Source: Myxococcota bacterium (GTDB lineage Bacteria; Myxococcota_A; Bradymonadia; UBA7976; UBA1532). From it: a DNA stretch of 37,007 nt. The notes below the pieces were generated by a model, which saw nothing but the letters and a program-made list of their open reading frames with translations, was not told the origin of the DNA and did not search any database. The stretch covers positions 1-37,007 of the forward strand of contig JAYZEG010000084.1 in assembly GCA_036337435.1 (NCBI GenBank). Direction: 5' to 3'. Of the stretch, positions 1 through 34,985 are shown in pieces. The position numbers were made by a program, and so were the translations under genes. Position 1 is the first letter of the stretch; every line of letters starts with the position of its first letter.

Positions 1-1602
1 AGTTCGATACCCCATGCCCTGGGCACTGTCTAACCAATACCGACTTCGGTTGGTGACCACCGTCTCGACCGCCTCACGATGCTCCGCCGAGGCACGCTCA
101 ATGCTCAAATACGCCAATAATGGGGGGATAATGGTATCTCCAACAAATCGAGGCAAGCTGAAGATGAGATCATCATCCCGAAAAGGCATGTATTCGATGA
201 ACGACTGGTCATACTGTGCGCTGCCGGTTGTCTTCAGCAGTTCAGCCGCAGCCCAAGCGTCCCAATAGGTCTCGTGCTCCCAATCCATTGGCCGATTGCT
301 CTCAGCCCAATCAAAGGCTCGAGTTGCGCTATTTAAAAGGTCCCTTGCGGTCCGTTCATCCCAATCCTTGTACGCCCGTGCAAGCTTTGAGGCGGCAATG
401 GAATAACGATATGATGCAAGTACACTGGATGCGTAGACATACGGACCGACACTGTCTACCCCCGACGGCATGCCACCGTCATTACGCTGCAAGAGGCGAA
501 AGAATTCGACACCCCAATGGGCTTCGTCGAGCACATCCGGAATACCGTTTCCACTCTCTGGAATACCAAGGTCATCCCTCGCGAAACGAACAGGGTCGAT
601 CTCGTACAGATCGACGAGGGCATCAACGACCGCCATATGTTGAATACGACGGTCATAATTACCCGCGTCATGGTACCCACCTGCAACCTCGAGCTGTTCC
701 TCTGTCTCCTCGTTTGGAATGGTGGAAAATGACGAAGATCCAGCAGTAAAACCATCGACCCCTGACCGCGCAATTGGATCTCCATAACGGCAGTCGTCTC
801 GAACAAAGTTTGTAAACGGCTCCTCGAGGGCCGTACCACACCGCTGATGGTAGAGTGCTTTAAAGACCGTGATAAACGCGTCATCGTAAACATTGGCACC
901 CACACGAAATGGCCAAGACCGACCGACCCCATGCCACACGATATAGAATTCGCCGTCATTCACGAGCTGGAACAAGTTCAACTCGAAAATGTTAGCCAAA
1001 CTGTAGTTGTTCATGTAGGCGTCTTCCGTACGCTGCTCAGCCGGTGCCCGAAGTTGCATCCTTGACGTCAAGACCACGGCACCCGTCGCACTATTGATAA
1101 CTGAAAAACGCCTTTCCTCCGGCCCCAACTCCATGGCTGGCATCGACCCCAACCAATAGCTGACATAAGCCCAACGGCCGAAGGCGTCCGGAAGGTAGCC
1201 GACCTGATTGACTTTGATGGCGGGCGACCAGTTTAAATCGGGATGATGGGTATACGTAAAGTCGTCTCCTCGATTTAATATTCCAAATTGGTAACTTGCA
1301 CCCAAAGCCAAGCTGCTTGGCAACTCCAGGACCACCTCGTACGTCTGGATACTTGGGTACGGTAACTCCTGAGCTTCGATGAGCCGCTCGGGCATCCCCT
1401 TTAGATAAACTCGGTTCGGATATGAGACCTGAGCGAAGTTTGGATCATCTTGGCTCACGACGGCGTAATTGTCTGGGTCGTCGCTCGGGATTTCTCCCGC
1501 AGGAACCACCAGTACAATATGTCTGGGCGAGACCACTCTCACGCCAGGATCAATCATAGGAGGACTCGCCAGTAAGACGAGTGCTGCAAGCATACTCGTC
1601 AC
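1..1602 (-). CDS. Glycoside hydrolase family 9 protein (CelD-type Ig-like N-domain + catalytic barrel), secreted; 3' end lies outside the window
   Basis: Not in the ORF track; I translated it by hand. The frame is open from GTG at 1602 (GAGGAGG Shine-Dalgarno just upstream; alternative ATG 1593) to position 1. It has a hydrophobic N-terminus MLAALVLLAS and the GH9 hallmarks IKVNQVGYLP, GVGRSWPFRV, ALYHQRCG, GGYHDAGNY, IPESGNGIPDVLDEAHW and WAAAELLKTTG. Confidence 0.92.
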   Translation of the reverse strand, partial: MTSMLAALVLLASPPMIDPGVRVVSPRHIVLVVPAGEIPSDDPDNYAVVSQDDPNFAQVSYPNRVYLKGMPERLIEAQELPYPSIQTYEVVLELPSSLALGASYQFGILNRGDDFTYTHHPDLNWSPAIKVNQVGYLPDAFGRWAYVSYWLGSMPAMELGPEERRFSVINSATGAVVLTSRMQLRAPAEQRTEDAYMNNYSLANIFELNLFQLVNDGEFYIVWHGVGRSWPFRVGANVYDDAFITVFKALYHQRCGTALEEPFTNFVRDDCRYGDPIARSGVDGFTAGSSSFSTIPNEETEEQLEVAGGYHDAGNYDRRIQHMAVVDALVDLYEIDPVRFARDDLGIPESGNGIPDVLDEAHWGVEFFRLLQRNDGGMPSGVDSVGPYVYASSVLASYRYSIAASKLARAYKDWDERTARDLLNSATRAFDWAESNRPMDWEHETYWDAWAAAELLKTTGSAQYDQSFIEYMPFRDDDLIFSLPRFVGDTIIPPLLAYLSIERASAEHREAVETVVTNRSRYWLDSAQGMGYRT

Positions 1603-1641
1603 AATCGCACCCTCCTCATGACCAACGCATCGTCCATCAGA

Positions 1642-4600
1642 CTACGGGCCAACAAAAGGCTCACCATAAATCTCCAATTCCGAAATACCGCCTCCACTCT
1701 CATTCCAAGAATCGACGTAGAAACGAACGCGATTTCCAATCTGGCACTCATCGAACTGAGTGGTGATCCAACGGAGTGCTGGCAGCTCTGGTTCACTGCC
1801 TTCATCGACTTGAGTTTCGACATCGCCGTTAAAGATTGAAAGTCGCCAGTCCGCCGTGGAGTAGTAGTGAGTCCCACTGTTGTTGGTATTCATCCAACGC
1901 ACCGAACAAATCCGATGGGGCACCATCAAATTGACCTCAACATGCCCTTGGTTTCGCGCACGCAGCAGCCAATAGTCGTAGGCAACATCTGACTCTTGCG
2001 CGCTTCGAGTTCCGTGATATGCGCCGTCTGTGACGCGCTGCGCGTTATAATTATTATTGTAAACAGACGTCCCTGTCGCGCGGAGCCCAGCCGCGACATT
2101 TTCGCAGTCTGGACACGTATCGCATGCGTCGCCGATGCCATTATGGTTGGTATCCAGCTGTGCTGCATCCGGGTCATCAGGGCAAAGGTCATTGGGGTCA
2201 GCAATGCCATCCCCGTCACTGTCTTCAACCTCGAACTCAAAACGAAAATAACGATGGCTATTTTGCGCCCCACTGATCCAGCGAGCCCCCAACCCTAGGT
2301 TCATCAACGGCCAATCAACATTGTTCTCGTGCCGGCCTGCTGCCGCATGCCGAGTTGTATTCATCCACACACCACGCGGACTCGATACATCCGATAAATA
2401 AACATCATCAGCGATCAGAAACCCAAAAAAGTTATTCACGCTCTCATCGGCAAATTCGAGCTGAACCTCAGCCCCTTCGTGCTCCTCTAATACCGCGAAT
2501 CTTTGCCATTCCAACGTCGTGCTGTTGGCAGCAGTCCAGCTCCCCAAAAGTTCAGCGCGGTCACCTGCTTCATCGAGCCGCCAGAGGCGGGCACACGTAC
2601 AGCCGCCTTCATGCCCATCAGCATAAGCACCACCAGCGAGTCGAAAATGAAGAAAGCCTCGGTCCAATGTAAATGGCTTTGAATACAAATGCCCGAGAGC
2701 CTGCGCACCGCCTTCAGACGACGTGGCCGCATACGTCCCACCCAAACCACCAATGACTTGACCGAAACTGCCCACTGAATCGGGTCGTACACCCCAGGCA
2801 TTCCCAGTGGTTCGCCACGCATCTTGGTCGGGCAAAGCTTCACCCAAGCCAATAAAGTCTGCTCGGTCTTCAAAGTCTCCAAGCTGAGTTTCCGCAGCAC
2901 CGAGGTTCGTCCCGTTCCAGCCAAAGTCGGCACGATCCGAACCCACCCAACCGCCACGGCCTGTGACGTGATGAAAGCCGAGGCCTAAATCCAGTGCTGC
3001 AACGAACTTACGTGAGACACTGTCAAAATCCCCTTCGATCGCAAGCACATTGGTTCCAATCCGCGGCGTCACTCTCGCCGCCTCCGCGACTCGGTAGCGA
3101 TTACCCCGAGTGACTTCTTCACCATTAAAATAGGCGACGTATGGGTCTTGAGAATCGACCTGTAACAGGCCACTCAGTTCCTCTCCCAAGCCGGTAATCG
3201 CGATATTATCGAGCATGAAGGTATAGTCACCTTGGCCAACCACCTCGAAGCGGATCACTACGTCCTCCTGGCCCGCGAACGCGCTCAAATCCTGTTCAAG
3301 TCGCTGATACCCTTCGGATGAACGACGCGTGTTATCGCCAAAGCGTGCAAGTCGAATCGTCTGCCGTAAATCTCTCGACTCCACACTCAGGTGCAAACGT
3401 TGGTTATTGGCCATCGTCAGGAAATTTGCATCCATCTCGATGCGAGGATTAACGACGTTGGTAAAATCCAATCGGCCACCTAACTCCAGAACCGACTGCC
3501 CTCCCCAACCGTTTTCGTCTCTAGTCGCTTGCGCCAGCAAGCCTCGGCTGCCATCAACCCCCACTTGAGGTACGACCGTCCAGCTCCCACTGACCGGATC
3601 CCAAAGTGAACCGTCTTCAAAGTCATCCAGGTTGAGTGCATTCAGGTTATTGCGGCTCGGGTCTTCAATCAGTTCAACGCGCTCGATTTCAACGCCGGCA
3701 TCGGCCCCCGCCGTCCCAGTTTCAACCAAGAACTCCAAATTAAGTGCGCGGTCACCACGCACCTGATTCAAGGGGATATCGAAGCGGTCAACAACACCAC
3801 TCTGACCACCGGCATTTGAACTTATCAGCGTGTACTGTCTATCTATAAACTCGAGCGGCTTCAACAGGACACGCAAGGCTTGACTCCTCGCCCTTAACTG
3901 ATAGCGAGCAAAGACTCTCAGCAGCGGGTTTCGCAAACCGGTCAGGTCGAACGAGCCAATCCTTACTTTTGCCTTACTCGCCAGAGGCAGATTCTGCATC
4001 GTTGTGACGAGCCGACCTCGGCCATTCACGCCTCGCACCACGTCCCAACCTTCCGTCAGCATCTCCACTTTGTCAGACGGAAAATCCACCGTGAACGGGG
4101 TCAGCACTGGTGGTTCTGGCCGCGGCTTTTCTTCAATGGCCAAACTATCCAGGAAGACGGCCGGATTGGCGTGTCCCTCATGATAAAAAATAAAGCGAAT
4201 CCGAACGTCTGGGTCTCCAACCTGTTCCAAAAGACTGATTTCCGATTTGGAGAACAGGGTGTTCCCGTCACCGCGCAGAAGCGCTTCCGTCTTGCCCGCC
4301 GCATTCTCCGGATCAATAACCACCTCAAGACGCTGTAATCCTCGCAATGCTGCGCCCGTCCTCGACCAAACGACCAGCCGTGGGTCGCGGGTCGCTCGAA
4401 GGTCGATTCCCCAGCGTAGCTCGATAATAGAAGTCCCCTGTTTAGCCGGCCCAGCGGGCAAGGTTGCCGCAAACTCTGGCGTCCAAGCCGGACCGCCAAG
4501 CGTCCAGCCGTTCTCAGCGACACGCCAATCCTCTAGACTGTCGAACTGCTCTCTAAACGGTATACCAACAGACGGCGGTCTCGGGTTTTCATCCACCGTA

Positions 4601-6681
4601 ATTTCGTCAAAGGACAGGCGCCCAAAACCACCTTGCCCGGTCATTCGAAAGCGAAGTCGAACACCATCCCGCCCTTCGAATCCCCTCAAATCGAAGGTGT
4701 AGAGTTCGTACCCGTTTGGGAGTGTCCGGTCCGCATTTCCAGACCCTACGACACGGAAGGAGTCGCGGAGATTACGATCCACGAATACGTCGACGAAGAA
4801 AGCCTGGTTCGCCTGTCGCCTGACCCAAAATGTCAGCCGAGGCCGCTCACTGCGCGTGAGATCTATTGGAGGCGAGTTGATGGCCACAATCTGCGTCCGT
4901 TGATTGTTCCCTTCGACAAGTCCGAAGTCACCTTCTTTAGCCGCCGACTCGTCGTACACCCATCGTCCACTCTGCTCCCACCCAGCAATGGGATTACAAT
5001 CGTCTACGCCGTCTTCACACTCGAAATCTTCATAGAAAAAGAGCAATTCGCAGACGTCTCCGGGAGGGCCTCCGAAGGTGTTCGCCTGATCCGCGTTACT
5101 CAAAAATGGACAATTGTCGTCGTCATTATTCACCAAGTCGCCATCAATATCATCGTCGCATCGGTCCCCAATGCCATCTCCATCGGCGTCATCCTGTGCG
5201 GGGTCGGGGATGCTTGGACAGACATCTAAATCACCGCATAGACCGTCTTCGTCGAGGTCGTTATCTCCATCGTTCGGGCACAAATCACACACATCCCCAA
5301 GCCCATCAGCATCGGTATCCAACTGGTCGGGATTTCTGAATCTCGGGCAGTTATCGGAGACATCACACACACCGTCCCGGTCCGGATCAGACCCCCCACC
5401 GAGCAGGCAGCCATCGCAAGCGTCACCTAAACCATCGCCATCTCGATCGCGTTGGTCTGGGTCTGGTACATCGGGACATAAGTCAATGTCATTACAGACG
5501 TTATCGCGGTCTGGGTCATTGGTCGCGTCCGCGGGGCAACGATCGCAGAAATCACCAAGCCCATCTCCATCGAAGTCTGCCTGTTCAGGATCTGCAACCG
5601 CTGGACACTTGTCGACTTCTCCACAAATCGAATCACCATCTTCATCATTGTTCAAGTCAAGCGGGCACAGATCGCAGCTGTCTCCAAGGCCATCCCCATC
5701 TAAATCAGACTGGTCCAAATTGGGAATATTGGGGCAGTTGTCTGCACCACCGCAAAAACCATCTTGGTCGCGGTCGTTGTCCCTATCGGTCGGACACGGG
5801 TCACACTCGTCACCCCGACCATCACCGTCCACATCATTTTGTTCAAGATTTGCGATATCCGGACAATTGTCTTCGGTTGCGCATAGCCCGTCCCCATCGA
5901 TGTCATCAAACATATCGGTCGGGCATGGGTCACAGACATTACCGAGACCATCTTGGTCGGTATCGGCCTGTCCCGGCTCCCATTCGAAGGGGCAATTATC
6001 GACTACATTGTCGACGCCATCACCGTCGACATCGGAATCACACTCATTGCCTATATTATCGTCATCGAGGTCTTCTTGCTGTGGGTTGGCAACCAATCGG
6101 CAGTTGTCGTCAACGTTGGCGACCCCATCGCCATCGACATCGACATCACATTCGTTGCCAAATCCATCGCCGTCGACATCATCTTGACTGGCGTTTAATG
6201 CATCTGGGCAATTGTCGTCATCATTATCAACGCCGTCTCCATCTCTATCTCGGTCACACGCGTCCCCACGGCCATCACCATCGAGGTCGCCAACTGCAAA
6301 CCGTGGGTCCAGAGGACACGCATCCTCGTCGTCAGCGATGCCATCGGCATCATCATCGTCGTCACACGCATCCCCGATGCCATCGCCATCGGTGTCAATC
6401 CGGAGTGGGTCCGGAACGAAGGGGCAGCCATCGGCTTCATCGAGGACACCATCGCCATCATCATCGTAGTCGCAGAGGTCGCCCTGCGAATCGCCGTCGA
6501 GGTCTTGCTGATCCGGGTTGTACACGGCCGGACAGTTATCTTCGGCGTCCGTTATGCCGTCATCATCGCGATCTAAATCGAAGCCGATATCAGGCTCTTG
6601 AGTCCCGGATGCGCCGCTCGAATCGTCACAGCCTGGCAGCAAGAATAAGATCAAAAACAATAGAAGACATTTACGTATCAT
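1642..6681 (-). CDS. Giant lipoprotein (1679 aa): thrombospondin type-3 repeats, four MAM/jelly-roll-like repeats, carbohydrate-binding-like modules and a C-terminal discoidin/F5-8-like domain
   Basis: Start moved to ATG 6681 (MIRKCLL), which overlaps the upstream stop as ATGA. Lipobox LLPG-C. It carries many DNCP..NPDQ.D.DGDG.GD.CD units and four ~150-aa repeats opening with (E/D)(D/Q)F(E/D) and containing IDL...P.L. The C-terminal VRFYVDSW...GGISELEIYG is typical of F5/8 type C domains. Confidence 0.88.
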   Translation of the reverse strand: MIRKCLLLFLILFLLPGCDDSSGASGTQEPDIGFDLDRDDDGITDAEDNCPAVYNPDQQDLDGDSQGDLCDYDDDGDGVLDEADGCPFVPDPLRIDTDGDGIGDACDDDDDADGIADDEDACPLDPRFAVGDLDGDGRGDACDRDRDGDGVDNDDDNCPDALNASQDDVDGDGFGNECDVDVDGDGVANVDDNCRLVANPQQEDLDDDNIGNECDSDVDGDGVDNVVDNCPFEWEPGQADTDQDGLGNVCDPCPTDMFDDIDGDGLCATEDNCPDIANLEQNDVDGDGRGDECDPCPTDRDNDRDQDGFCGGADNCPNIPNLDQSDLDGDGLGDSCDLCPLDLNNDEDGDSICGEVDKCPAVADPEQADFDGDGLGDFCDRCPADATNDPDRDNVCNDIDLCPDVPDPDQRDRDGDGLGDACDGCLLGGGSDPDRDGVCDVSDNCPRFRNPDQLDTDADGLGDVCDLCPNDGDNDLDEDGLCGDLDVCPSIPDPAQDDADGDGIGDRCDDDIDGDLVNNDDDNCPFLSNADQANTFGGPPGDVCELLFFYEDFECEDGVDDCNPIAGWEQSGRWVYDESAAKEGDFGLVEGNNQRTQIVAINSPPIDLTRSERPRLTFWVRRQANQAFFVDVFVDRNLRDSFRVVGSGNADRTLPNGYELYTFDLRGFEGRDGVRLRFRMTGQGGFGRLSFDEITVDENPRPPSVGIPFREQFDSLEDWRVAENGWTLGGPAWTPEFAATLPAGPAKQGTSIIELRWGIDLRATRDPRLVVWSRTGAALRGLQRLEVVIDPENAAGKTEALLRGDGNTLFSKSEISLLEQVGDPDVRIRFIFYHEGHANPAVFLDSLAIEEKPRPEPPVLTPFTVDFPSDKVEMLTEGWDVVRGVNGRGRLVTTMQNLPLASKAKVRIGSFDLTGLRNPLLRVFARYQLRARSQALRVLLKPLEFIDRQYTLISSNAGGQSGVVDRFDIPLNQVRGDRALNLEFLVETGTAGADAGVEIERVELIEDPSRNNLNALNLDDFEDGSLWDPVSGSWTVVPQVGVDGSRGLLAQATRDENGWGGQSVLELGGRLDFTNVVNPRIEMDANFLTMANNQRLHLSVESRDLRQTIRLARFGDNTRRSSEGYQRLEQDLSAFAGQEDVVIRFEVVGQGDYTFMLDNIAITGLGEELSGLLQVDSQDPYVAYFNGEEVTRGNRYRVAEAARVTPRIGTNVLAIEGDFDSVSRKFVAALDLGLGFHHVTGRGGWVGSDRADFGWNGTNLGAAETQLGDFEDRADFIGLGEALPDQDAWRTTGNAWGVRPDSVGSFGQVIGGLGGTYAATSSEGGAQALGHLYSKPFTLDRGFLHFRLAGGAYADGHEGGCTCARLWRLDEAGDRAELLGSWTAANSTTLEWQRFAVLEEHEGAEVQLEFADESVNNFFGFLIADDVYLSDVSSPRGVWMNTTRHAAAGRHENNVDWPLMNLGLGARWISGAQNSHRYFRFEFEVEDSDGDGIADPNDLCPDDPDAAQLDTNHNGIGDACDTCPDCENVAAGLRATGTSVYNNNYNAQRVTDGAYHGTRSAQESDVAYDYWLLRARNQGHVEVNLMVPHRICSVRWMNTNNSGTHYYSTADWRLSIFNGDVETQVDEGSEPELPALRWITTQFDECQIGNRVRFYVDSWNESGGGISELEIYGEPFVGP
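5050..6576 (-). repeat. Thrombospondin type-3 (Ca-binding DxDxDGxxDxxD) protein repeat array, about 19 units
   Basis: Counted by eye in the translation (NCPAV, GCPFV, ACPLD, NCPDA ... NCPFL). The units are diverged at DNA level, so this is an old protein-level array. Confidence 0.85.
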
Positions 6682-9600
6682 GGTCGTTGCCAACTCACCC
6701 TTACACGCTGCAACAACGGCAGCACATCATCACTCTGGCGGCTTAAACGTACTTCCGCCTCCAACCATCTGTTCTGTGGGGTATAACCAGACTCTAAATT
6801 TGCGGCGGGAATTCGATACGGACTCTCGAAACTTCGCCCGGACCAAGCCGCCGCCGTCAGGCCGGCCCGCGTCGGCGCCGTTCGAACGCGCACGTCGACA
6901 AAGGCACCATTGGGGATGGCACCATCCCAATTGATCAAATCCCAAATTACATCATCTGAGCCACCATCGACTCGCACACTCCAGCGGCCCGTGCTGAGCG
7001 TGATGGTCAAAAGCTGAATGCCCGTCATATCACTATACGTATACAGCGCGGGCAATCCCTCGGTGCGACACAGCTCTACACCATTGGTGTTGAAACGGTA
7101 GGCTCGACTGGTGCTGATGCCAAAAATGCCGCCCTCCGCATCAACTGCGACCCCCATGAGTGAATCGCCTACGGGCACAGTGAGCAACAAATCGCCGTCT
7201 GGATTGTACTTAAATAAAGCCCGGTCCTCCCATCCTGCTGCCCAGATATTGCCATCAAGATCAACTGCGATCCCTCGGGTTCGCCCGCGCCCAGAATGCC
7301 GAAACAATTCGAGTTCATGGGTTCGACCATCGATCCGGCCAACATATCCCCCTGGTTGCCACACGCCGTACCAGACGTTGTCTCGCTTATCGATGGCCAT
7401 TCCGTAGAAGGACACGTTCAAAAAGCTCTCCTGGTCGCCGTCCATGAGCCTTCCGTTACGGGGTACGATGCCAACCACAGAGCCATCGCGGGTGTCTACC
7501 TTAGTCGGTGAGCCCGCGATGCCCGACGTCCACAAGAACCCTCGGGAATCGACGGCCGCACCATAGGCAGGCGAGGCCAGCTGGACCTCTTGCAAGATTC
7601 GACAATCGGGGAAACCATCAGGCGCATCAGACGGGACGACCTCGTTCCCGCTGACACGGTATATCTTTGTTCGATCCCAGCTTCCCAACCACACGTTGCC
7701 GTCTTGGTCTAGCGTGACTGCCCGAACAGCGACCCCATTTCGCGACGTGCCGGTAATCCGAGCTCGACAGATGAGGCTGCCATCTCGATCGAGGTGAACC
7801 GCGTTGCCCTGGGTGTAGTCAGAGGCGTCTGCATCAGACCAGGCCCGATTTCCAACCCAAACACTGCCGTCGACTGCGACCGCCGTTCGAGACGGATAAA
7901 ACCCGTAGCTCGGGAATGAATCCATCACCTCACAGGTACGGGTGTTGATCTTGATGACTTCACGATTGTTTGTTGCTGCGACCCAAAGAACCGAATCCCC
8001 GGTTGCCTCAGCAGAGCCAAGAGTGAGCGCATTGGGGTCATCCGGTGCGGGCATTACATTTACCGATGACCCTCGCTCCCACTCATTTGCCTCATCAAAC
8101 TCAAGCTCGAAGCAGCTTTGACCGCAGAGGCCGCAGAAATTGACGGTTCCCTCGTCGACGAGGCCATCGCAATCGTTGTCCACGCTGTCGCACTCTTCAG
8201 CGGGCAGTGGGCCGCACTGACCACACGCGTTGCTGACACCTTCATCAACACGCCCGTCACAATCATTATCCGTACTGTCGCAAACCTCAGGCGGTGCCAG
8301 TCCACAGGTCCCACACGCGTTGCCATCAGCCGGATTTTCATCGACGACTCCGTCACAGTCGTCATCTCGCGCATTACACGTCTCTAACGTCGGCCCCACC
8401 CAGTCGCGGCAACCTGCTTCATCACCCTGCTGCAGCAACTGGCCTGGAATACATTGAAATTGACCATATCGACATTCACCGATGCCAGCGGTCTCAGGTG
8501 GGCCGCCGTAACACGGTTGAGGCGGCCCTTTCACGCAGCCACAGATCTCTTCAACCCGGCCATCGCAATCATTGTCTAGCCCGTCCCCACAAACTTCTTC
8601 CGCTTGTTCTGGTCTACACCCGCACGGCCCCCTGACGATCTCGTCGGTCTGACCATCACAATCGTCATCAATTTCATTGCATACCTCGTCACTGGGCACG
8701 CAGGCTTCACCTGGGCAGCCTTCGTCGACAGTCCCGTCACAATCGGTATCAAGCCCATCACCACAAACCTCGTCTGCTGGCAAAACTTCGCCTTGGCAGG
8801 CGGCCAATTGCCCATCTGCGCAATCGGAAAAGCCGCCACGGCAAGTCCCCACACCAAGGTGCTTCGGCAGCCCGCTGTAACACGGTTGTTGTAAACGCCC
8901 ACTGCAATCACAGGTCTCATCGATACGCCCGTCGCAATCGTCATCTAACCCATTGCCAAAATCCCCAATCGGCCCATCACAGCGCTCTCTCGGCGCTGCA
9001 CCGCATTCACCGCACGCATTGGTCTGCCCCTCGTCGATCAGGCCGTCGCAATCATCGTCGATTGAATTACATTGTTCTTGCCCAGGTAGAATTTGTCCCA
9101 CACAGCTGGCCCGTCGCCCTTCCGAACAGACCCAATAACCAGGACGACATGCCGCTACCCCTTTGCTCCCTGCCGGCCCGGTGTAGCACGATTCACGAAC
9201 GCTCTCTAAACACTGACATTCTTCGTCTGTCGAGCCATCGCAGTCATTATCGAGTCCATCACAGAACTCGTCCGGCTCGAGCCCGCAGCCGCCACAGGCA
9301 TTGCGAACGCCTTCGTCCACCTGCCCATCGCAATCATTATCTCTGAGATCACAGGTTTCGGCTTCGAGATCGCCACACCGGCCGCATGCGTTCAGAACCC
9401 CCTCGTCGGTCACCCCATCGCAGTCATCATCTGTACCGTTACAGAGCTCAGAAATCGGAGTCCTGGACTCTTCGCACGGTCCAAGCGCGCCATCTCGGCA
9501 TATCCGAAAACCACTTCGGCAGCGGCCCACGCCAACTGTCGCTTCATCGGCTGGGTAGCAAGGCACAGACTCGCCATCAGTACATCCACAGCCCTCATCA

Positions 9601-28079: not shown

Positions 28080-28129
28080 AAGACAGACTTTGTTTATACT
28101 CGCTTCAATCCTTCAATATTTGAGACTAT

Positions 28130-28723
28130 ATGATGCTTCGACGTATCTTGCTAACCATATCGTTCATACTCCCCATTACAGCTGCCGCAGAATCCGTTCT
28201 GCCAAGCTTAGCGGTGCAGAATCGACGGTATACTCAAACCCATGAGTTTACCGCTGTTTTAGGGCATCTACCGATGGACGCCTTTACGAAGGGCGTGACA
28301 ATGAGTGGAGCGTACACGCTTCATTTCAACGACCTATTCGCTTGGGAAGTCGCACAGTTCTACTACAGTTTTGGCGTTGATACAGAACTCGAGAGCGAAC
28401 TTCTCGCTTTCGACTTGAAGCCAACCCCATTTGAGCGCGTTGAGCAGTTTGTCACCAGCAACCTGCTTTTCAAGCCACTGTACTGGAAAGGTGCTTGGTT
28501 AAACGACAGGCTCGGATACGGAGAGTTTTTCTTATCTGCTGGTGGTGGATACGGCTGGTTGACACGCACCCAAAGACCGGTCCTGAGTGCCGGTATTGGC
28601 TTTCGAGTTTACCTTCATGACTATGTGTCGATGCGATTTGACCTTCGGGATCTCGCATTTATTGCCGAAAATGACACGCAGAACGAATTATGGCTTGGCT
28701 TGGGACTTTCACTTTCACCATGA
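28130..28723 (+). CDS. Myxobacterial-type outer-membrane beta-barrel protein (GltA/GltB/GltH family-like)
   Basis: Signal peptide ending AAA-E. Motifs AVQNRRY...HEF, P.DAFTKG...GAYTLHF...AWE, FKPLYWK, GIGFRVYL...RFDLRD and a terminal LGLGLSL strand. It precedes GltC/GltD-like TPR genes. Confidence 0.85.
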   Translation: MMLRRILLTISFILPITAAAESVLPSLAVQNRRYTQTHEFTAVLGHLPMDAFTKGVTMSGAYTLHFNDLFAWEVAQFYYSFGVDTELESELLAFDLKPTPFERVEQFVTSNLLFKPLYWKGAWLNDRLGYGEFFLSAGGGYGWLTRTQRPVLSAGIGFRVYLHDYVSMRFDLRDLAFIAENDTQNELWLGLGLSLSP

Positions 28724-30129
28724 TGGGCTTCAGATATACGATAATCGGTCTGCTCTTACTTGGCTGCGCCGGTACAATACCGCAGAATCGAGAGTTAGCA
28801 TTCGTCTATGCTGTCGATCAGCTCCAAGCGGGGCGGCCGGTCGCCGCCGCGAGTGCTGCCTGGCAATATCTTCAGGGCGCATCACCTGAAGATCCTCGAT
28901 ATGATCGAGCCCAGAGACTCCTCGCTCGTTCGTCGGAGGAATTAGGGCTCAGCTATGCGGCTGCTCAATGGTATCTCGATATCGCTCAAGGGCGACGAGA
29001 CCCTGAATTACTCGCAGAAGCCGTACGAGGACTTCAGTCTATCGTCGAGTCCGGAGCCTACGATGAAGATGCGCTGGTCGATGGCTACCTGGCGTCAGCA
29101 GAGATCACGGGTCTGCCAGCGGATCTGCAGGCGTTCATTGCTTACCATCAGGGTTTAAGGGACGCGCGCCTGCTTGAAAAGCGTTGGTCAAAAGACAACT
29201 TTAACTCGATTAATAATGCCAGTGCGTACCGGGCGGATGCTCGCTATGTCGATGCCGTTCAATCGGTTGCTAAGCGAAAGATCGATGTCGCATTGACCAA
29301 GCTTGAAGAGCTGGAAAAGGTGACGCCTATTCGGCCGGAATTATTGACGCAAGTCCGCCGTAGTCTGGCCCGGCTTCACAGTGCGAAAAAGAATCACTCG
29401 GACGCCTTAGAACGGTACGAACTTCTTCGGCAGGAAGCCCCTGGCGACCCCGAACTCTTACTCGAAATGGCATGGGTCCATTATGAGCGGGGCGATATTC
29501 GCCGAGCCCTGGGTTTATTACTCGCCCTCGATGCGCCCATCTATGCGGATTTGATTGCACCCGACCGATTTTTACTCGAAGGCCTGGCCCTACGCAGGCT
29601 TTGCCAGTTTGGTCCCGCACGACAAGCTGCGACTCGACTGAGGGCAAAGCATGGTAAGGCATTGGACGATCTCTACAGCGGTGTTCAAGCCATGAATTCC
29701 AAGGCGCTCAGAGCGGCGGCGCGCAGACGGACAGCAGTTAAAACTCGCAGTGCCTTTCAGCGAAAAGTCGTCAGCGAAGACAATCGGCTAAGGACGCTCG
29801 CGTTCAGCCCACCACTTCGCGCTCATTTGACAGCCATGTACGCGCGGGGCAAACGGGAGGCAACACGCGGACTCGATGAGGCGTTGGTTGGTGAAATTGA
29901 CAGCCTCGCTGAAGAACTTCTTGCCGCTGAAGAAGGCGTCAATCTGATTCTTCATGAGCTTGGCGTGGGGCTACTCCGTGGCCGTGAGCGATCCCCGGGC
30001 CCTCCGCTTTACCCAGCGCCGGTCGTCACAACGGGCGGCCGAAAGGCATTCTTCAAATTCCAGGGTGAATTCTGGACGGATGAACTCGACGATTTAATCG
30101 TAGTTGGGGAAGACCGATGTATCGAATAA
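28720..30129 (+). CDS. GltC-like TPR lipoprotein
   Basis: Start ATG 28720 (ATGA overlap). Lipobox LLLG-C. TPR helices, LLEMAW...RALGLLLALDAP, and C-terminal FKFQGEFWTDEL...C resembling the GltC W.F.GE(Y/F)W.DEL motif. Confidence 0.78.
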   Translation: MMGFRYTIIGLLLLGCAGTIPQNRELAFVYAVDQLQAGRPVAAASAAWQYLQGASPEDPRYDRAQRLLARSSEELGLSYAAAQWYLDIAQGRRDPELLAEAVRGLQSIVESGAYDEDALVDGYLASAEITGLPADLQAFIAYHQGLRDARLLEKRWSKDNFNSINNASAYRADARYVDAVQSVAKRKIDVALTKLEELEKVTPIRPELLTQVRRSLARLHSAKKNHSDALERYELLRQEAPGDPELLLEMAWVHYERGDIRRALGLLLALDAPIYADLIAPDRFLLEGLALRRLCQFGPARQAATRLRAKHGKALDDLYSGVQAMNSKALRAAARRRTAVKTRSAFQRKVVSEDNRLRTLAFSPPLRAHLTAMYARGKREATRGLDEALVGEIDSLAEELLAAEEGVNLILHELGVGLLRGRERSPGPPLYPAPVVTTGGRKAFFKFQGEFWTDELDDLIVVGEDRCIE

Positions 30130-33100
30130 TCTCCACGTTTTTGATGCTCAGCTTTATCGGCTGCGCCGCGCCCAATACAGAGCTGCGTGATCAACCACAA
30201 GTAGAGCGGCTGCGAATCCAGATAAGCAAGGCGCGGAATGCGATCGCAGAAACCCGTCGGGCCATCGCCGAGGCCAGGGGTGCCCCCTATGTCGTCGAGC
30301 TCTATGTTCGACTCGCCGAACTACTGGGTGATGAAGCACGCTACCATTATCAAGTGGCATATGAGCGTGAACAACGGTCAGGAAAAACACTTCATGTACC
30401 GCAGGTGCGGTTTTTGAAAGAGCAAGCGATCGGCATCTATACTGAAGTGCTGGCCAAGAATCCCGGTACGCCACTTGCCCCACGCATTCTATTCAACATG
30501 GGACAGGAACAACGCGAGTTAGGGAATTACAAGAAAATGCGAGCGGCCCTCGAACGGCTCGTCAGCGAACATCCCAATTCAAGCCTGCGCTACGAAGCCC
30601 TCTTGATTTTGGGCGATGACCGCTTTGATCGAAGCAAGCTCGAGGAGGCCGGCAAATATTACGCTCAAATGCTGACCGGCAACCTGAATCGAATGACGGG
30701 TCTCGGACATTATAAGTACGCCTGGGTGATGGTCAATCAGGCGAATTGCAAGGCGGCACTCACTCATTTTCGAGACGCAATTATCTCCGCGGAGAAATGG
30801 TTCGGGCGCAAAAATGCGACCGTCGACGAGAGTGCGACACAGTCAAACCTCGATGTACGTCGCGAGGCACTCGTTGACTTGGTCTATTGCTACACACAGG
30901 AACACAAAGACAAAGGTGTCCTCAAGTACCTGCGGGGGCTTGCATACAGTCGGGGTGCATACGTTGCCGCATTGGAGCGACTCGCCGACCGGTTGGGGAC
31001 ATTGGATGCAGCGGCGGGTGCCCTCAAAGCTGGCCGTGAACTCTTGATCCTCGGCACCGACTCACCGAAGCGGGTCGACGACGCACGTATGCTTTATGCG
31101 GCGATTCAAAAGACTAAGGATTTTAGCCAAGTAGGTCGCGATGCTGAACTGATTTCGCGCGCGTTTCTGCGCCAAATCAGGAGGCCTACGGGGGCTGATG
31201 AGACTCGAGAACGCCTAGAAACCGAACTTGAGACCGTCCTGGCCAACGTCGGTATTTTGGCACAAAAAAACATGAACAAGCTGAAGAAAGGCACCGCGGC
31301 GAGAAACCAGCTTGCGGTGGAGATCGCAAAAGCCTACCAACTTCACGTCAGAGCATTTCCGGACAGCTCCCAAAAAGGGGCCATTCTTGGAAATCTGGTC
31401 GATGTCTTAGTTGAATCAGGAGATGTCTTTGCTGCGGGACGCAGTGCGATCCAACTTGCGGAACATCTCGCGAAAGGCACCGACCAGGACAACGCCTGGT
31501 ATGATGCTTTGGTCAATTTCCAGAAGACACTCCGAGGCGAATCGACTCGAATGCAACGCGTCGTCGCTCGAGCCGGTCTTAGAAAGGCTGGGCGGTCCCT
31601 GTTAGCGAGTGCCTTGGCACCCGAACGTGCGAGAAAAGTGAAGTTCGCAGTCGCACAAACCGACTATGACGAAGGGCGTCATCGCGTTGCCATCGACCGC
31701 CTGAATGCAATCGCATTCGAATATCCGGGCACACTTGAAGGAAATACGGCGGTCAACCTCGTTCTCGATTCATTTAAAATCGCCAATGACTATTTGGGTT
31801 TGATTAGAGCAGGTCATCGATTTATGGCCGCAAGCAGCCCTGTCCAAGCGAGCATCAAAGCGGAAATCCGACCTATTGTTAAGAGTGCTGAACAGTTTCA
31901 ATTGGACGAGCTCGCCCTCGCCGCCGCTGGCGTAGACGGCGGAGATGTTACTGGCGACCTTGAAAAATTTGCTGAAGCCTATGCAGGAACAGCCTTAGGC
32001 GAACGCGCGGTCATCAATGCGCTCTTGGCGGCCCGAGCATCTGGCGACAGTAAGACGCTCTATCGCCTGGCTGCTGAGTTTGAAGAGAAATACCCAAAAT
32101 CCAAGCAGCTATCAGCGATCCGCTCCACAATCGCGCGTACGGCTGCGTCTCGCTACGAGTTTGACCAAGCCGTCAAGTACTTTGCCACTGCGGCCGCCGT
32201 TCCAGGGGCACAGCGTGTCCCATTGTTCATTGCGGCTGGTCGTCTCAAGGAACAGCTTGGGGACATCAGCGGTGCAAAGAGCACCTTCAAAGCAGCCTTC
32301 CAGGCCGCCGACACAACGGCTGCTAAAAATAGTGCCATTCAACCCCTGGCCAAGCTGTTTGAACGGCAAGGTCAATACCGGAGTGTGGTGACCACCATCG
32401 GTCCCCTCGGTGACGAAGCTGATCCTGAGAGCTTGGCCTATCTAGGGATTGCACAAATTAGAGTGGGTCAAACCGATGAAGGCGAGGCGACATTACAACG
32501 CGTCTTGGATGGAGGCAGCACGGTATCAACAGAGGCTCGCTCACGAGCGCATTTCGGTCAAGCTGAAGTCTTCCTGAAAGCCCTGGAGAGCTTCGACCCT
32601 GGTGAAGACCTCGAGACGATTCAAGAGTTAGTCACCCTTCTCGAAGTCACAGAACAGGCGTACCTGAAAGCAGCTCGCGAGGGTGATCCGACATACACCG
32701 CAGCGTCTTTTGGACGACTCGCTCACGTCTCAAAGAAGACGGCCGCGCGAATGCGAACCATCAAAATTCCAACGGGGACTGACCCCGAAATGGCAAGTGC
32801 CCTCAAAAAGGGCTTCGCTCAACGCGCAGATGTTCTCGATAAGCAGGCCACCGAAGCGTTGGCCGCCTGCGCAGAACAAGGCTGGATTCACTACAATTTT
32901 AATCCCCTGGTCAGGGCATGCTTAAAGGGAGAGGTTCCGAAAGCGAATGCGGTCCGGTTTGATGTTCTCAAACCCCGGAGTACCACTCAGGCTCCGGCAG
33001 ACCTGGAAGCGTTAAGGGTTCGGCTTTCAAAGAACTCCGAAGACCTCGATGCGCTACGTGCCATCGGTGTGAGCTTCATTAAAGCTGGAGACTACCACGG

Positions 33101-33353
33101 TGCACGCCTGGTTTTCGGGGGGGCAGCCCAAATCGGCGGCGGCCCTATCGAATCTAATTTGCTTGGGATCGCCAGCTATCGCGCAGGTGACATTACCGGT
33201 GGCCTTGATGCGTTCGCGAGAGCGGCAGCAGGCGGCCTCACCACCGGCCGTGACAACTTGGCTAAAGCTCTTGAAGAGCAAGGCCTTCCGAATGCGGCCG
33301 CAGATGCAAAGAAGCGCTATCCTGGCGGTCAGTCCGGTGGCATGCGATTATGA
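30117..33353 (+). CDS. GltD/AgmU-like large TPR lipoprotein with an extra C-terminal TPR segment
   Basis: Lipobox FIG-C. RLAEL..DEARY, AIGIY..VL...P, HYKYAW...N and RREALVDLVYCY, plus the C-terminal Y.KAA..GDP...AA....L...IP.G..........A..L...A.EA...C block typical of GltD. Confidence 0.78.
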   Translation: MYRIISTFLMLSFIGCAAPNTELRDQPQVERLRIQISKARNAIAETRRAIAEARGAPYVVELYVRLAELLGDEARYHYQVAYEREQRSGKTLHVPQVRFLKEQAIGIYTEVLAKNPGTPLAPRILFNMGQEQRELGNYKKMRAALERLVSEHPNSSLRYEALLILGDDRFDRSKLEEAGKYYAQMLTGNLNRMTGLGHYKYAWVMVNQANCKAALTHFRDAIISAEKWFGRKNATVDESATQSNLDVRREALVDLVYCYTQEHKDKGVLKYLRGLAYSRGAYVAALERLADRLGTLDAAAGALKAGRELLILGTDSPKRVDDARMLYAAIQKTKDFSQVGRDAELISRAFLRQIRRPTGADETRERLETELETVLANVGILAQKNMNKLKKGTAARNQLAVEIAKAYQLHVRAFPDSSQKGAILGNLVDVLVESGDVFAAGRSAIQLAEHLAKGTDQDNAWYDALVNFQKTLRGESTRMQRVVARAGLRKAGRSLLASALAPERARKVKFAVAQTDYDEGRHRVAIDRLNAIAFEYPGTLEGNTAVNLVLDSFKIANDYLGLIRAGHRFMAASSPVQASIKAEIRPIVKSAEQFQLDELALAAAGVDGGDVTGDLEKFAEAYAGTALGERAVINALLAARASGDSKTLYRLAAEFEEKYPKSKQLSAIRSTIARTAASRYEFDQAVKYFATAAAVPGAQRVPLFIAAGRLKEQLGDISGAKSTFKAAFQAADTTAAKNSAIQPLAKLFERQGQYRSVVTTIGPLGDEADPESLAYLGIAQIRVGQTDEGEATLQRVLDGGSTVSTEARSRAHFGQAEVFLKALESFDPGEDLETIQELVTLLEVTEQAYLKAAREGDPTYTAASFGRLAHVSKKTAARMRTIKIPTGTDPEMASALKKGFAQRADVLDKQATEALAACAEQGWIHYNFNPLVRACLKGEVPKANAVRFDVLKPRSTTQAPADLEALRVRLSKNSEDLDALRAIGVSFIKAGDYHGARLVFGGAAQIGGGPIESNLLGIASYRAGDITGGLDAFARAAAGGLTTGRDNLAKALEEQGLPNAAADAKKRYPGGQSGGMRL

Positions 33354-33955
33354 GTGGGAGATTAACCAACATGATGAATACGCTCTCCAAGGTTTTCGGT
33401 TTTGCCTGCCTCATGGTCGGCTGTACGGGCTTGAATGTCGACCGATTGTCGTTGACGGATCCGAGGCTCCCAGTCGATGCCCGCCGATGGGTCGCAGATG
33501 CAGAGGACGCTGTGGTCATTTCTCGCGCCAAACGAGACGAGGCAGGGCGTCTCTTGAAAGCGGTGCAATCATCTCTAGAGAAAACACTTTCGGCACCCGC
33601 CTTCGACGGACCTCAAGGCACCACGGCAAAGCTTAAACGTGAACAAATGGCCTTGTCACGGCTAGATGCTGCCACGGCTGCATTGAGCCTAGCAGACGCG
33701 GAGCTGGGCCTGTCCAAAGCGCGTTTGAGGCTTATCTATGCTGAAACGGCAATGCGACAAGACATCGCTGTTTACAACATGCCCCCACTTCAAGCCGCTG
33801 TCGACCAAGCGTTGAGTGCCGTCGTTGCAAATCGCGACGCCCATCGGCGCGCTCGTGAAGCTGAATTAAAGGCCGCTGATGAATGGTGGTCGGCGTGGCA
33901 GTCTTTGGCAGCCAAAAAGGGTGATACTCGTCCCTTCTGGACACAGGCGGATTAA
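33350..33955 (+). CDS. Alpha-helical (coiled-coil) lipoprotein, function unknown
   Basis: ATGA overlap with the TPR gene (alternative ATG starts about 21-24 nt downstream). Lipobox MVG-C. Ala/Leu-rich helices. Confidence 0.75.
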   Translation: MSGRLTNMMNTLSKVFGFACLMVGCTGLNVDRLSLTDPRLPVDARRWVADAEDAVVISRAKRDEAGRLLKAVQSSLEKTLSAPAFDGPQGTTAKLKREQMALSRLDAATAALSLADAELGLSKARLRLIYAETAMRQDIAVYNMPPLQAAVDQALSAVVANRDAHRRAREAELKAADEWWSAWQSLAAKKGDTRPFWTQAD

Positions 33956-34539
33956 TGAAACAGACTTTTGGATTGATACTCGCTTTTGGTGCTTTAGCCG
34001 GCGTTGGATGCGGCGGTGAAGAAGACGACTGCACGGGGGCGGTCATAGAGCAAAGCACGACAGCTCTACAATTCGGCTCGCTCGCCATCGGGGGCGCTCG
34101 TAACGTTCAGGGAGACCTCAGCTTACCCGAGAGCCGAACCGTGTTTTTGAAGAACCGCTGCGGCGCACCGCTTGTGGTCAGGAAGGCCTGCCTCATCGAA
34201 AATGGACACGATGGAGACGCCAACGTCGCGGCCTTTTCTCGAGAATATGAACCCGGCCTAGACCTGCCCATTTCTGTCAGCCCAGCGAAAGATACTGCCA
34301 TTCGATTGACCTTTGACGTAGACACCCCCAATACTGATTTATCTGACAACGGAGAACCTGACTTCAACCGGTCGAGTTTGGTGGTTTTTTACAACGCCTC
34401 GAATTCTGCTGCAATCGCCATCCCCGTTTGCGGCCGGGCCATCGAGTCGGTTGACGAGGCGTCGGCCGGTTCCGGCCCGTGCGAATTGCCCAACGATTTC
34501 GATGCCAGCGCGATAGATGAAAGCATATGTGGCGACTGA
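33955..34539 (+). CDS. Lipoprotein with an Ig-like (ASH/choice-of-anchor D-like) beta-sandwich, function unknown
   Basis: TAATG overlap. Lipobox GVG-C. Pattern LQFG...SRTVFLKN.CGAPLVV...LPISVSP....IRLTF. Confidence 0.7.
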   Translation: MKQTFGLILAFGALAGVGCGGEEDDCTGAVIEQSTTALQFGSLAIGGARNVQGDLSLPESRTVFLKNRCGAPLVVRKACLIENGHDGDANVAAFSREYEPGLDLPISVSPAKDTAIRLTFDVDTPNTDLSDNGEPDFNRSSLVVFYNASNSAAIAIPVCGRAIESVDEASAGSGPCELPNDFDASAIDESICGD

Positions 34540-34985
34540 TAGTAGGATTCATATTGGTGACAGGGTGCCAGACCCCCGAAGAGGAATTCGCGGCTGGTCG
34601 TCTTGAAAAGCTTTGTGACGGAGCCATCCCGGTGTGCTCGGTACAAGCGGCTTGCATTGTCGATGATGCTGACTATCTATCCGCCCGTTTTCCTGGCGGT
34701 CAACGTTTCGTGATTCAGTCCAACGAGCTTGACACAAAAGCTGTTGTCCGTTTGTACTTTGAGGAAATGATTTTCCCAGGAACTGAATTTCAACTCAAAC
34801 TTTATGGCCCTGGATGCGCAACCCTAGAAACGCTCCAAGTCCTCGACGTCGACTTATTTGAGCGGGCTGGGGACAACCGCATCGTCGAGTTCTCGCTGCC
34901 CGTCGAAGAGAGCGGTGACCATCTGCTCGAGGTCTACTCCGACATGGCCGCATCCTATCTGCTTATCGTTGACTTAGAGCGATAA
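34527..34985 (+). CDS. Small Cys-containing lipoprotein, function unknown
   Basis: Signal MWRLIVGFILVTG-C. 13-nt overlap with the previous gene. Last gene of the arm. Confidence 0.75.
   Translation: MWRLIVGFILVTGCQTPEEEFAAGRLEKLCDGAIPVCSVQAACIVDDADYLSARFPGGQRFVIQSNELDTKAVVRLYFEEMIFPGTEFQLKLYGPGCATLETLQVLDVDLFERAGDNRIVEFSLPVEESGDHLLEVYSDMAASYLLIVDLER

Follow-up and report, generated by a model that had tools for sequence, protein, structure and literature searches.

A G5-Mts gene cluster with an ExbB-ExbD motor in a Myxococcota genome and its orthologues in Myxococcus xanthus

What might a bacterium do with a Glt-type envelope machine, of the kind known from gliding in Myxococcus xanthus, that is encoded together with its own proton motor and a set of surface lipoproteins with von Willebrand factor A (VWA) and TSP3 domains? 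The question is raised by contig JAYZEG010000084.1 of an uncultured marine Myxococcota bacterium (assembly GCA_036337435.1; class Bradymonadia), a metagenome-assembled genome (MAG) of 4.38 Mb in 95 contigs that is 87% complete. The window analyzed here is the whole of this contig (C84), 37,007 bp. An original prediction, made from the letters alone, took the locus for a new Agl-Glt variant with a glycan-directed payload. The reading that we favor, with a probability of roughly 0.6, is that it is this organism's copy of a G5-Mts system with a dedicated motor: a Glt-type envelope machine, driven by the proton-motive force, that would serve VWA/TSP3 surface adhesins for cohesion.

The cluster has two divergent arms. 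The minus arm spans 17740 to 1 and is transcribed in the order g10, g09, g08, g07, g06, g05, g04, followed after a 187-bp gap by g03, g02, and g01. The plus arm spans 18007 to 34985 and holds g11 to g15, g16 (which lies on the opposite strand), and g17 to g22. As had been predicted, the genes are mostly overlapping, by 1 to 16 nucleotides, or by more when the longest open reading frame (ORF) is taken. Direct reading shows a signal peptide followed by a lipobox-like Cys in 14 window products. Genes were taken from the ORF list, domains from Pfam, and equivalog models from NCBIfam. ORF calling in the relatives relied on a simple script, and start positions there are uncertain; the genome samples are not exhaustive. 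By these means all of the genes listed in the original prediction were found in the window, namely ExbB, two ExbD proteins, Glt-like genes, a VWA/TSP3 set, an MtsF-like gene, two giant lipoproteins, and a GH9 gene. The core claim, that a Glt-type set stands here with its own motor (ExbB/ExbD/ExbD) and its own VWA/TSP3 adhesin genes (g09, g11, and g12), therefore stands.

Orthology to the G5 and mts genes

To what do these genes correspond in the model organism? Besides the gliding genes, M. xanthus carries the paralogue clusters G3 (nfs), G4 (MXAN_1919-1923), G5 (MXAN_1327-1331), and M2 (MXAN_3003-3005), and the functions of G4, G5, and M2 were unknown when they were described (Luciano et al. 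2011, PMC3169522). MtsC is given as MXAN_1334 in PMC12475490, and with G5 at MXAN_1327-1331 the mts locus must therefore abut G5. The M. xanthus-type complete genome used as our reference, G451, has exactly this layout: F-G-B-C-D is the order of its G5 genes, all of them on a single strand, and six mts-type ORFs run divergently beside them. The original prediction had placed mts apart from the glt clusters in M. xanthus, which is wrong by both gene layout and locus tags. The mts locus itself was reportedly first described by Zhang et al. in 2007.

The reference behaves as expected of M. xanthus. Its MtsD scores 1353 bits (cut-off, 800) and its GltG 1093 bits (cut-off, 650), and its ORF lengths equal the published ones (MXAN_1327, 1089 aa; MXAN_3004/3005, 173 and 193 aa; AglRQS, 245/162/194 aa). 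NCBIfam models exist for MtsC and MtsD only; the letters MtsA, B, E, and F were assigned from gene order around MtsC/MtsD. The MtsD cut-off is reached by 68/121 genomes in a sample of the class of G423 (67/120 without the unpublished G508), and by none of 301 genomes sampled from the window's phylum group, in which the GltG cut-off is not reached either. No Myxococcus was found among ten hand-picked genomes or in a class sample of 151.

In phmmer searches against G451, g19 matches the MXAN_1327-type gene (E 7.9e-96), g18 the MXAN_1328-type (E 3.6e-52), g17 the MXAN_1329-type (E 8e-27), and g04 the MXAN_1330-type gene (E 3e-29). On the adhesin side, g09 matches the ORF in the MtsB position (E 2.5e-43), g11 and g12 match MtsD and MtsE (E about 1e-40), and g13 matches the ORF that follows MtsE, in the MtsF position (E 1e-12). 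Matches to flanking genes complete the set: g22 and g14 pair with ORFs downstream of mtsF (E 2e-19 and 2e-18), and g15 pairs with an ORF beside the MXAN_1327-type gene (E 1e-7). Judged from these sequence comparisons, the Glt-like and Mts-like genes of the window are orthologues of the G5 cluster and the divergently adjacent mts genes; this does not extend to the motor or to the kinase-like transducer. What had been announced as a new, separate Agl-Glt variant thus turns out, by phmmer, trees, and reciprocal best matches, to have G5/mts orthologues as its core. The original prediction had named direct orthology to G5/mts genes as the outcome that would speak against it, and for the most part this is what the component trees give, again with the motor and transducer excepted.

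The scaffold genes carry the clearest signal. g19 (30117..33353, plus strand) encodes a 1078-aa TPR lipoprotein, the orthologue of the G5 GltD paralogue MXAN_1327. The two are reciprocal best matches with 30% identity over 682 aa, and among the G451 paralogues it is the G5 copy that g19 matches best, at 313.6 bits as against 44 for the copy at the nfs site and 33 for that at the glt site. A GltD tree of 15 rows separates a G5 clade (g19 and eight Mts- or motor-linked copies, including the MXAN_1327-type protein) from a G1/G3/G4 clade, each with a Shimodaira-Hasegawa-like approximate likelihood ratio test (SH-aLRT) value of 100. g18 (28690..30129, plus strand) encodes a TPR lipoprotein of the GltC/MXAN_1328 type (36 bits to the GltC model, whose cut-off of 450 is not reached), and g17 (28130..28723, plus strand) encodes a small outer-membrane beta-barrel of the GltB/MXAN_1329 type (71 bits to OMP_myx_plus, TIGR04565, cut-off 60). 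Both are reciprocal best matches of the corresponding G5 genes. The genes for two small lipoproteins, g20 and g21 (33350..34539, plus strand), accompany those of the GltD and GltG types; in the relatives G176, G013, G427, G554, G548, and G151 their homologues adjoin g19 or g04. The NCBIfam Glt models found no GltE, H, I, J, or K gene in the cluster, and the predicted lack of GltI/GltJ-like genes in the window is thus borne out.

Among the adhesin-type genes, g11 (18007..20259, plus strand) encodes an MtsD-type lipoprotein with a VWA domain (VWA_2, 38.4 bits), a metal ion-dependent adhesion site (MIDAS) reading DQSAS, and TSP3 repeats (TSP3_bac, 41.3 bits). g12 (20175..22052, plus strand) encodes the MtsE-type counterpart, with a Pfam VWA_2 match, the MIDAS DVSDS, and TSP3. 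The third, g09 (14892..16904, minus strand, with its start probably at the Met at 16829), is an MtsB-type TSP3 lipoprotein (TSP3_bac, 53 bits) whose VWA-like domain shows the MIDAS in a degenerate form, DxAxG. It has neither a Pfam VWA_2 match nor DxSxS, yet it aligns over its full length with its paralogue g11 (hhalign probability 100%, E 3.4e-73, 526 columns); a profile search of the PDB with the g09 family gave two weak leucine-rich-repeat matches and nothing else. Of the three VWA/TSP3 lipoproteins predicted, then, g11 and g12 are secured by domain and MIDAS, and g09 joins them by paralogy. The same division runs through M. xanthus, where DxSxS is present in MtsD and MtsE and missing from MtsB. 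Against the MtsD equivalog (cut-off, 800 bits), g11 and g12 score 143.5 and 133.4 bits, so their orthology rests on gene order (C-D-E-F is kept) and on trees. In a VWA tree of 24 rows, g09 groups with the M. xanthus-type MtsB (SH-aLRT 99), g12 groups with MtsE (93), and the D and E types form one clade (99).

Beyond the VWA genes, g13 (21994..25053, plus strand) encodes an MtsF-type Cys-rich lipoprotein with a PPC/galactose-binding-like domain (PPC, 23 bits), and its atlas neighbors carry PPC, MopE, and GBD domains. g14 (24842..26446, plus strand) encodes a conserved beta-propeller protein that belongs to no family and matches a 571-aa ORF downstream of mtsF in the M. xanthus-type genome. Its AF2 model has a mean predicted local distance difference test score of 79.6 and is all-beta over residues 120-534. 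Confidence is low for residues 1-114 of the longest ORF, which leaves room for a true start further downstream. g15 (26443..26883, plus strand) is a small conserved lipoprotein whose weak G451 match is to a 169-aa ORF, and g22 (34527..34985, plus strand) is a small lipoprotein and the last conserved gene of the Mts module, matching a 225-aa ORF after mtsF at E 1.7e-19. g22 is found in 25/58 related loci (described below) and is 84% identical in the same-genus genome G151. There synteny stops after g22, in agreement with the predicted right boundary of the cluster at 34985.

What about MtsA and MtsC? Among the 50 related loci whose flanks reach far enough, 41 have a TSP3 protein of about 450 aa (MtsC type) directly upstream of the g11-type gene, and in 40 of the 41 this protein has a MYXO-CTERM-like Cys...basic tail. 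The present genome has its MtsC orthologue on another contig (C10:30968-32332; 454 aa), with a MYXO-CTERM-like sorting tail and 54% identity to the copy in locus L011. The giant lipoprotein g02 was considered as MtsC and rejected: its 454 bits (cut-off, 350) are driven by repeats, it has no MYXO-CTERM tail, and the true orthologue is the one on C10. A search of the 87%-complete genome with the M. xanthus-type MtsA ORF gave no match.

In sum, the window shares with M. xanthus G5 plus mts the orthologous GltD-, C-, B-, G-, and F-like genes, the MtsB-, D-, E-, and F-type genes, three further flanking genes, the two-arm divergent layout, the MIDAS in the D and E types and not in the B type, and the lack of GltE, H, I, J, and K. 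It differs in that ExbB/ExbD/ExbD genes lie within it at 12797-14769 (the M. xanthus-type G5 cluster has no motor), in that the N terminus of its transducer is kinase-like rather than FHA, in that its B-C-D genes stand at the end of the mts-type arm rather than behind F-G, and in that the MtsC gene has moved to another contig and MtsA was not found. Identities to the M. xanthus-type proteins are only 25-40%.

A separate motor lineage and its transducer

The motor arm begins with g10 (16817..17740, minus strand), a 307-aa Cys-rich lipoprotein with no Pfam or NCBIfam match. It occupies the position that mtsA has in M. xanthus, with no sequence similarity detected between the two, and its homologues stand upstream of an MtsB-like gene in L011, L031, L038, L061, G176, G013, and G427. 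After g09 come the motor genes proper. g08 (13888..14769, minus strand) encodes a proton-channel subunit of the ExbB/TolQ/AglR type (MotA_ExbB, 81.7 bits) with a signal-peptide-like N-terminal extension. g07 (13300..13878, minus strand; ExbD, 48.3 bits) and g06 (12797..13303, minus strand; ExbD, 48.7 bits) both encode ExbD/TolR-type proteins. The transmembrane Asp is kept in g06, where its motif, LTSLLDMFTIIL, is present in 14/14 orthologues; g07 has Asn at the expected position. Among the 16 N termini of g07 orthologues listed, 13 read PVMNL and 1 reads PFMNL, and the other 2 are overlong ORFs that stop short of the motif in the 60 residues shown. AglQ, AglS, and both M2 ExbD proteins of the M. 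xanthus type have Asp there, as against the Asn of g07. The features of a 5:2-type motor are thus present, with MotA_ExbB and ExbD domains over the Pfam cut-offs and the Asp of g06, and none of g06 to g08 reaches the NCBIfam equivalog cut-offs for TolQ, TolR, ExbB, or ExbD. The first ExbD paralogue of another motor in this genome, at C63:17635-18303, also has Asn instead of the transmembrane Asp.

To which lineage does this motor belong? Two ExbB trees were built, one of 31 rows and a second of 25 rows that added G499, G013, G427, and G554. Both contain a single Agl-like clade (support, 99/98 and 99/95), within which AglR branches first. All of the Mts-linked ExbB proteins fall into a clade of their own (99/99 for 18 rows; 81/96 for 17 rows with G499 included). 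The best match of g08 in G451 is the M2 ExbB (40% identity), and M2 was therefore considered as the missing G5-Mts motor; it was rejected because the trees place it outside the Mts-linked clade. In the 31-row tree the M2 ExbB instead groups with a motor of the present genome on C63 that is linked to G4-type genes (93/91), a grouping that the 25-row tree does not resolve. None of the eight ExbB-family matches in G451 falls inside the Mts-linked clade, and the M. xanthus-type genome therefore lacks this motor. By the evidence of these trees, the motor of the window is a lineage distinct from AglRQS (M1) and from M2.

The motor genes are followed by g05 (12339..12800, minus strand), which encodes a small exported basic protein of the GltF/MXAN_1331 type; its place before the GltG-like gene is conserved. 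MXAN_1331 is listed as a gltF homologue in the supplement of PMC3169522. The link of g05 to the MXAN_1331-type ORF runs through intermediates, the G427 and G013 orthologues matching at E 8e-11 and 6e-10 and g05 itself at E 0.003. Next, g04 (10144..12384, minus strand) encodes a 746-aa transducer of the GltG/MXAN_1330 type, in which a cytoplasmic kinase-like domain is followed by a transmembrane helix, a Lys/Pro-rich linker, and a TonB-C-like domain. The AgmX/PglI C-terminal domain (NF033768) is found at 97.9 bits (cut-off, 40); for the GltG equivalog the score is 105 bits, below its cut-off of 650. The best M. xanthus-type match is the G5 GltG paralogue (93.7 bits), with the other three paralogues at 55.6-80.9 bits. 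At its N terminus g04 has no Pfam match and no FHA. The g04 orthologue of G176 scores 55 bits to Pkinase, and by direct reading it appears to lack the HRD and DFG aspartates. The MXAN_1330-type protein has FHA matches at this end. In the GltG-type transducer of this system (g04; L092:1732-4641), a pseudokinase-like module thus stands in exchange for the phospho-reader FHA of the M. xanthus type.

Is the window then simply the gliding machinery of this organism? Agl-Glt (G1, G2, M1, and CglB), as modeled in PMC11761067, is made up of a motor resembling TolQR, a transducer resembling TonB, TPR scaffold proteins (GltD/C), a small barrel in the outer membrane, and a lipoprotein adhesin with a VWA domain, and the window has the same kinds of parts; the CglD model, too, gives weak matches to g09, g11, and g12. 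One could thus propose that the cluster powers surface motility with VWA lipoproteins in the manner of CglB/CglD. We regard this as very improbable. Every part tested belongs to another paralogue lineage than Agl-Glt. The GltG and GltC equivalogs, GltI/J/H/K, and a motor of the AglRQS clade are all wanting in the window, as is GltE, and several VWA/TSP3 proteins stand in place of CglB, with cohesion rather than gliding as the probable output. A canonical-type set of GltC/D/E/F/G lies elsewhere in the genome, at C28:107149-115646, with a GltI-like gene on C74, and the prediction that the window is distinct from the canonical gliding set therefore holds. In M. xanthus, moreover, a G5 mutant glides normally (PMC3169522), and mts is reported not to act in A-motility (PMC12475490).

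Two further Glt-like sets were found in this genome. In a cluster at C63:8907-20759, C, D, E, and GltG genes of the G4 type occur together with an M2-type ExbB/ExbD/ExbD set. Its GltD-type gene matches the MXAN_1922-type gene at 668 bits, its ExbB the MXAN_3003-type gene at 193 bits, and its GltG-type gene the MXAN_1923-type gene at 256 bits. An A/C/D/E set lies at C24:5288-12691. The window is therefore the G5-Mts member of a four-set family. The cluster on C63 unites G4-type genes with an M2-type motor, which are apart in M. xanthus, and thereby suggests that the orphan M2 motor belongs to G4.

Other known systems resemble the window in part. The Agl-Nfs spore-coat machinery (G3) is likewise a repurposed Glt paralogue set in one cluster (PMC3169522), but it borrows the AglRQS motor, has no adhesin genes, and has in NfsD a protein far from g19 (44 versus 313.6 bits). 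The "core complex" (Group B) and the expanded sets of Bdellovibrio also unite a motor with GltG-, GltD-, and GltC-like genes in one locus (PMC3169522); in the present genome the core-complex-like set is the G4-like cluster on C63 with its M2-like motor, and the window has the Mts module in addition, with a motor from a lineage of its own. In a third case, that of the TolQ-like motors whose vWA transducers are membrane-tethered, a 5:2-type motor is likewise encoded beside vWA proteins (Williams-Jones et al. 2025, PMC12204202). Those transducers are anchored in the inner membrane and replace TonB/TolA, whereas the VWA proteins of the window carry lipoboxes and are encoded with a separate TonB-like protein, g04.

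Three modules, joined or split, in the relatives

How widely is the arrangement kept? A search with g11 gave 833 homologues at E<=1e-5, and an alignment of 12 of these retrieved 58 loci in MAGs titled Myxococcales, Myxococcota, Bradymonadales, Polyangia, Sandaracinaceae, and others. Four cluster-bearing MAGs (L047, L050, L059, and L062) are titled Enterobacteriaceae or Rickettsiales, for which mislabeling of the bin is probably the likelier cause than gene transfer. Where the flanks are long enough to tell, g12 follows g11 in 48/49 loci, and g13 is present in 36/37, g14 in 31/34, and g15 in 29/32. The motor is present in 16 of the 58, in two arrangements: divergent as in the window, or colinear in the order g11...g15-g09-g22-ExbB-ExbD-ExbD-g05. 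For 24 loci at least 8 kb upstream and at least 9 kb downstream are available, and among these the motor is found in 9, g17/g18 in 8, either in 15, and neither in 9. Within a sample of 301 genomes from the window's phylum group, g11 is found at E<=1e-60 in at least 24, with a patchy distribution. This is a lower bound, because three candidates were scored per genome; G151 was reported as having no g11 match yet holds the cluster. Patchiness is seen in the family as well, where a G5-type GltD is present in G151 (76% identity) and was not found with the g19-type query in G061, G111, G241, or G096.

Longer contexts show what the system consists of. It is made up of three modules (the Mts adhesins; the motor and transducer; and the GltB/C/D-like genes) that recur in Myxococcota and Bradymonadia MAGs, joined or split. 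G548 and the same-genus G151 repeat the order of the window from g11 to g22, and G548 does so from g04 to g22. In the complete genome G176 all three modules lie within about 25 kb. In G013, also complete, an MtsC-like gene, g11 to g15, g22, and g17 to g20 are at 2.11 Mb, and g10, g09, the motor, g05, g04, and g21 are at 2.35 Mb. Together with G427, discussed below, these layouts indicate that the modules have been shuffled but retained. Within Myxococcia, mts and G5 are adjacent in 5/6 contexts (G518, G443, G540, G492, and G499), and the sixth, G521, shows mtsB, D, E, and F only. G518 and G443 are colinear, with mtsA-F, two or three further genes, and F-G-B-C-D, and have no motor; G540 resembles G451; and G499 (4.35 Mb) has a motor linked to the cluster. 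Conservation of the linkage among relatives is supported by the survey of the 58 loci and by G176 and the other longer contexts.

Are these genes parts of one machine, or just neighbors? An Mts operon and a set of Glt-like and motor genes could often be located together for other reasons, for instance shared regulation or a shared destination in the envelope. In keeping with this, the modules are split in G013 and G427 and, within the 30 kb fetched, in G549, G550, G551, G552, G553, and G555; the Myxococcaceae-type clusters have no motor; and the MXAN_1327 insertion mutant has no motility phenotype. Nonetheless, we consider it unlikely. The g09/MtsB-type gene adjoins the motor, inside its operon, in 13/16 motor-bearing loci and likewise in G176, G013, G427, and G499 (not in G554). 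The adjacency of mts and G5 is kept from Myxococcia to the window's class despite many rearrangements, and all three modules are present in every genome that was searched for all three (the present one, G176, G013, G427, G548, G554, and G499).

The genes beyond g04 bear on yet another explanation, the one originally favored, in which the locus is a distinct new Agl-Glt variant whose glycan-directed payload of a GH9 enzyme and lectin-like repeats attaches to or processes glycan surfaces. g01 (1..1602, minus strand; GH9 plus CelD_N) is cut by the contig end, g02 (1642..6693, minus strand) encodes a 1683-aa TSP3 lipoprotein (TSP_3, 211 bits), and g03 (6678..9956, minus strand) encodes a lipoprotein with MopE repeats (147 bits) and a propeller. 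These GH9, TSP3 giant, and MopE/propeller genes are co-directional after g04, and g13 has its PPC/galactose-binding-like domain. The best Foldseek matches of the g14 propeller are the Photorhabdus propeller lectins for fucose and O-methyl sugars (E 4e-12, TM 0.64-0.68), followed by sialidases. Beta-propellers, however, match one another generically, so the lectin match is a lead at the level of the fold. A GH9 homologue is present in 0/58 loci and g03-like genes are present in 2, though the 10-kb flanks reach that far only in part. G548 is the nearest relative for which a long contig is available, and the 14.7 kb that it has past g04 contain nothing like g01 to g03. Only g03 keeps its place, within the genus: it adjoins g04 in G151 (83% identity), whose contig ends there. 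With the core genes being G5/mts orthologues rather than a new set, we judge this explanation improbable; glycan-directed cargo is not a conserved part of the system, and g01 to g03 are probably lineage-specific neighbors rather than core parts. g03 also has a 65%-identical full-length paralogue in its own genome (C61:22788-26018) and many weaker relatives, a large Cys-rich surface-protein family.

A few other features of the window can be dealt with briefly. g16 (26880..28079, minus strand) encodes an LVIVD-repeat lipoprotein (LVIVD, 31.5 bits) that is conserved in close relatives only, being present in G548 and G151; among the 58 loci it is found in 3. Past the cluster, 34994-37007 on the minus strand encodes a CoA-acylating methylmalonate-semialdehyde dehydrogenase (693 bits, over the cut-off) and the C-terminal part of a Cu/Zn-efflux-type metal-binding protein with an HMA domain. 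Both are unrelated to the cluster, and the dehydrogenase is absent from the same site in G151. A scan of 9500-18500 found 3 promoter-like sites against 4.6 +/- 2.2 in shuffles and 13 terminator-like sites against 8.7 +/- 2.7, and for g05, g10, g14, g15, and g20 to g22 no informative NCBIfam match was obtained even at E<=10.

Proposed working and its meaning

How would a G5-Mts system work? By analogy with Agl-Glt, for which an AlphaFold-based model is given in PMC11761067, and with Tol/Ton, a pentamer of the ExbB protein g08 and a heterodimer of the ExbD proteins g06 (with Asp) and g07 (with Asn) would turn proton flow into movement. This movement would be taken up by g04, whose kinase-like domain, single transmembrane helix, long linker, and TonB-C domain would let it relay through the periplasm to the GltD-like scaffold g19, assembled with g05, g18, g20, and g21, and on to the barrel g17. 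The resulting outer-membrane platform may position, expose, or load the surface lipoproteins g11, g12, g09, g13, g14, and g15/g22, which would probably act together with the MYXO-CTERM TSP3 protein MtsC encoded on the other contig. The output would be regulated adhesion, in the form of cell-cell or cell-surface cohesion, and not gliding. Cohesion is the likely output because of the role given to mts in papers that cite the locus, where mts is reported to act in cohesion, S-motility, and development in M. xanthus and M. fulvus.

Several observations weigh against a single coupled machine of this kind. A polar MXAN_1327 insertion in M. xanthus leaves gliding and twitching wild-type (PMC3169522, section 13 and the legend to Fig. 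S5). mts, by contrast, is reported to affect S-motility, and the two sets may therefore not be obligatorily coupled in M. xanthus. The genomes with a true MtsD (G451, G518, G443, and G540) have no motor beside the cluster, and in G451 there is no member of the Mts-linked motor clade at all. Eight of the nine loci that seemed to be Mts-only were extended by 7-20 kb on each side, and motor and Glt genes appeared in one (G554). In G427 the Mts module is at 1.71 Mb and the other two modules are together at 7.36-7.38 Mb, about 5.6 Mb away. Parts of the orthology are also less than tidy, in that the sister relation of g11 and MtsD is not settled inside the D and E clade of the 24-row tree, no gene of the window attains the NCBIfam equivalog cut-off for MtsD, GltG, or GltC, and the window holds neither MtsA nor the small MtsC gene (there is none between 17740 and 18007). 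The sequence analysis shows the orthology, the gene content, the conservation of the three modules, and the separate motor lineage; the coupling of G5, mts, and any motor, their assembly into one structure, the direction in which energy flows, and adhesion as the output are things that we infer. No publication linking mts with G5 or with a motor was found in the searchable literature, much subscription literature being outside its reach.

If the G5-Mts reading is extended to the family, a bolder proposal can be made, though we hold it only tentatively and would sooner bet against it. G5-Mts could be a fourth functional class of Agl-Glt-type machine, ancient and motor-driven, present from the window's class to Myxococcia, and displaying or tensioning VWA/TSP3 adhesins for cohesion. 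Its own ancestral ExbB-ExbD-ExbD motor would have been lost in Myxococcaceae, and M2 would belong to G4. Should this be true, cohesion by mts in M. xanthus ought to depend on the G5 proteins and on a motor borrowed in trans, either AglRQS or M2.

Overall, the cluster bears on questions that are old in M. xanthus, where G4, G5, and M2 have awaited a function since 2011 (PMC3169522) and no mechanism is known for the mts cohesion genes. G5 and mts form one conserved supercluster, with a dedicated proton motor in most of the lineages examined outside the Myxococcaceae type. This suggests for the model organism the testable idea that a Glt-type machine drives cohesion, and natural "complete" versions of the system are available in which to pursue it, some of them in complete genomes (G176 and G013). 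More broadly, gliding, spore-coat assembly, and, probably, adhesion are uses to which one design of envelope motor has been put.

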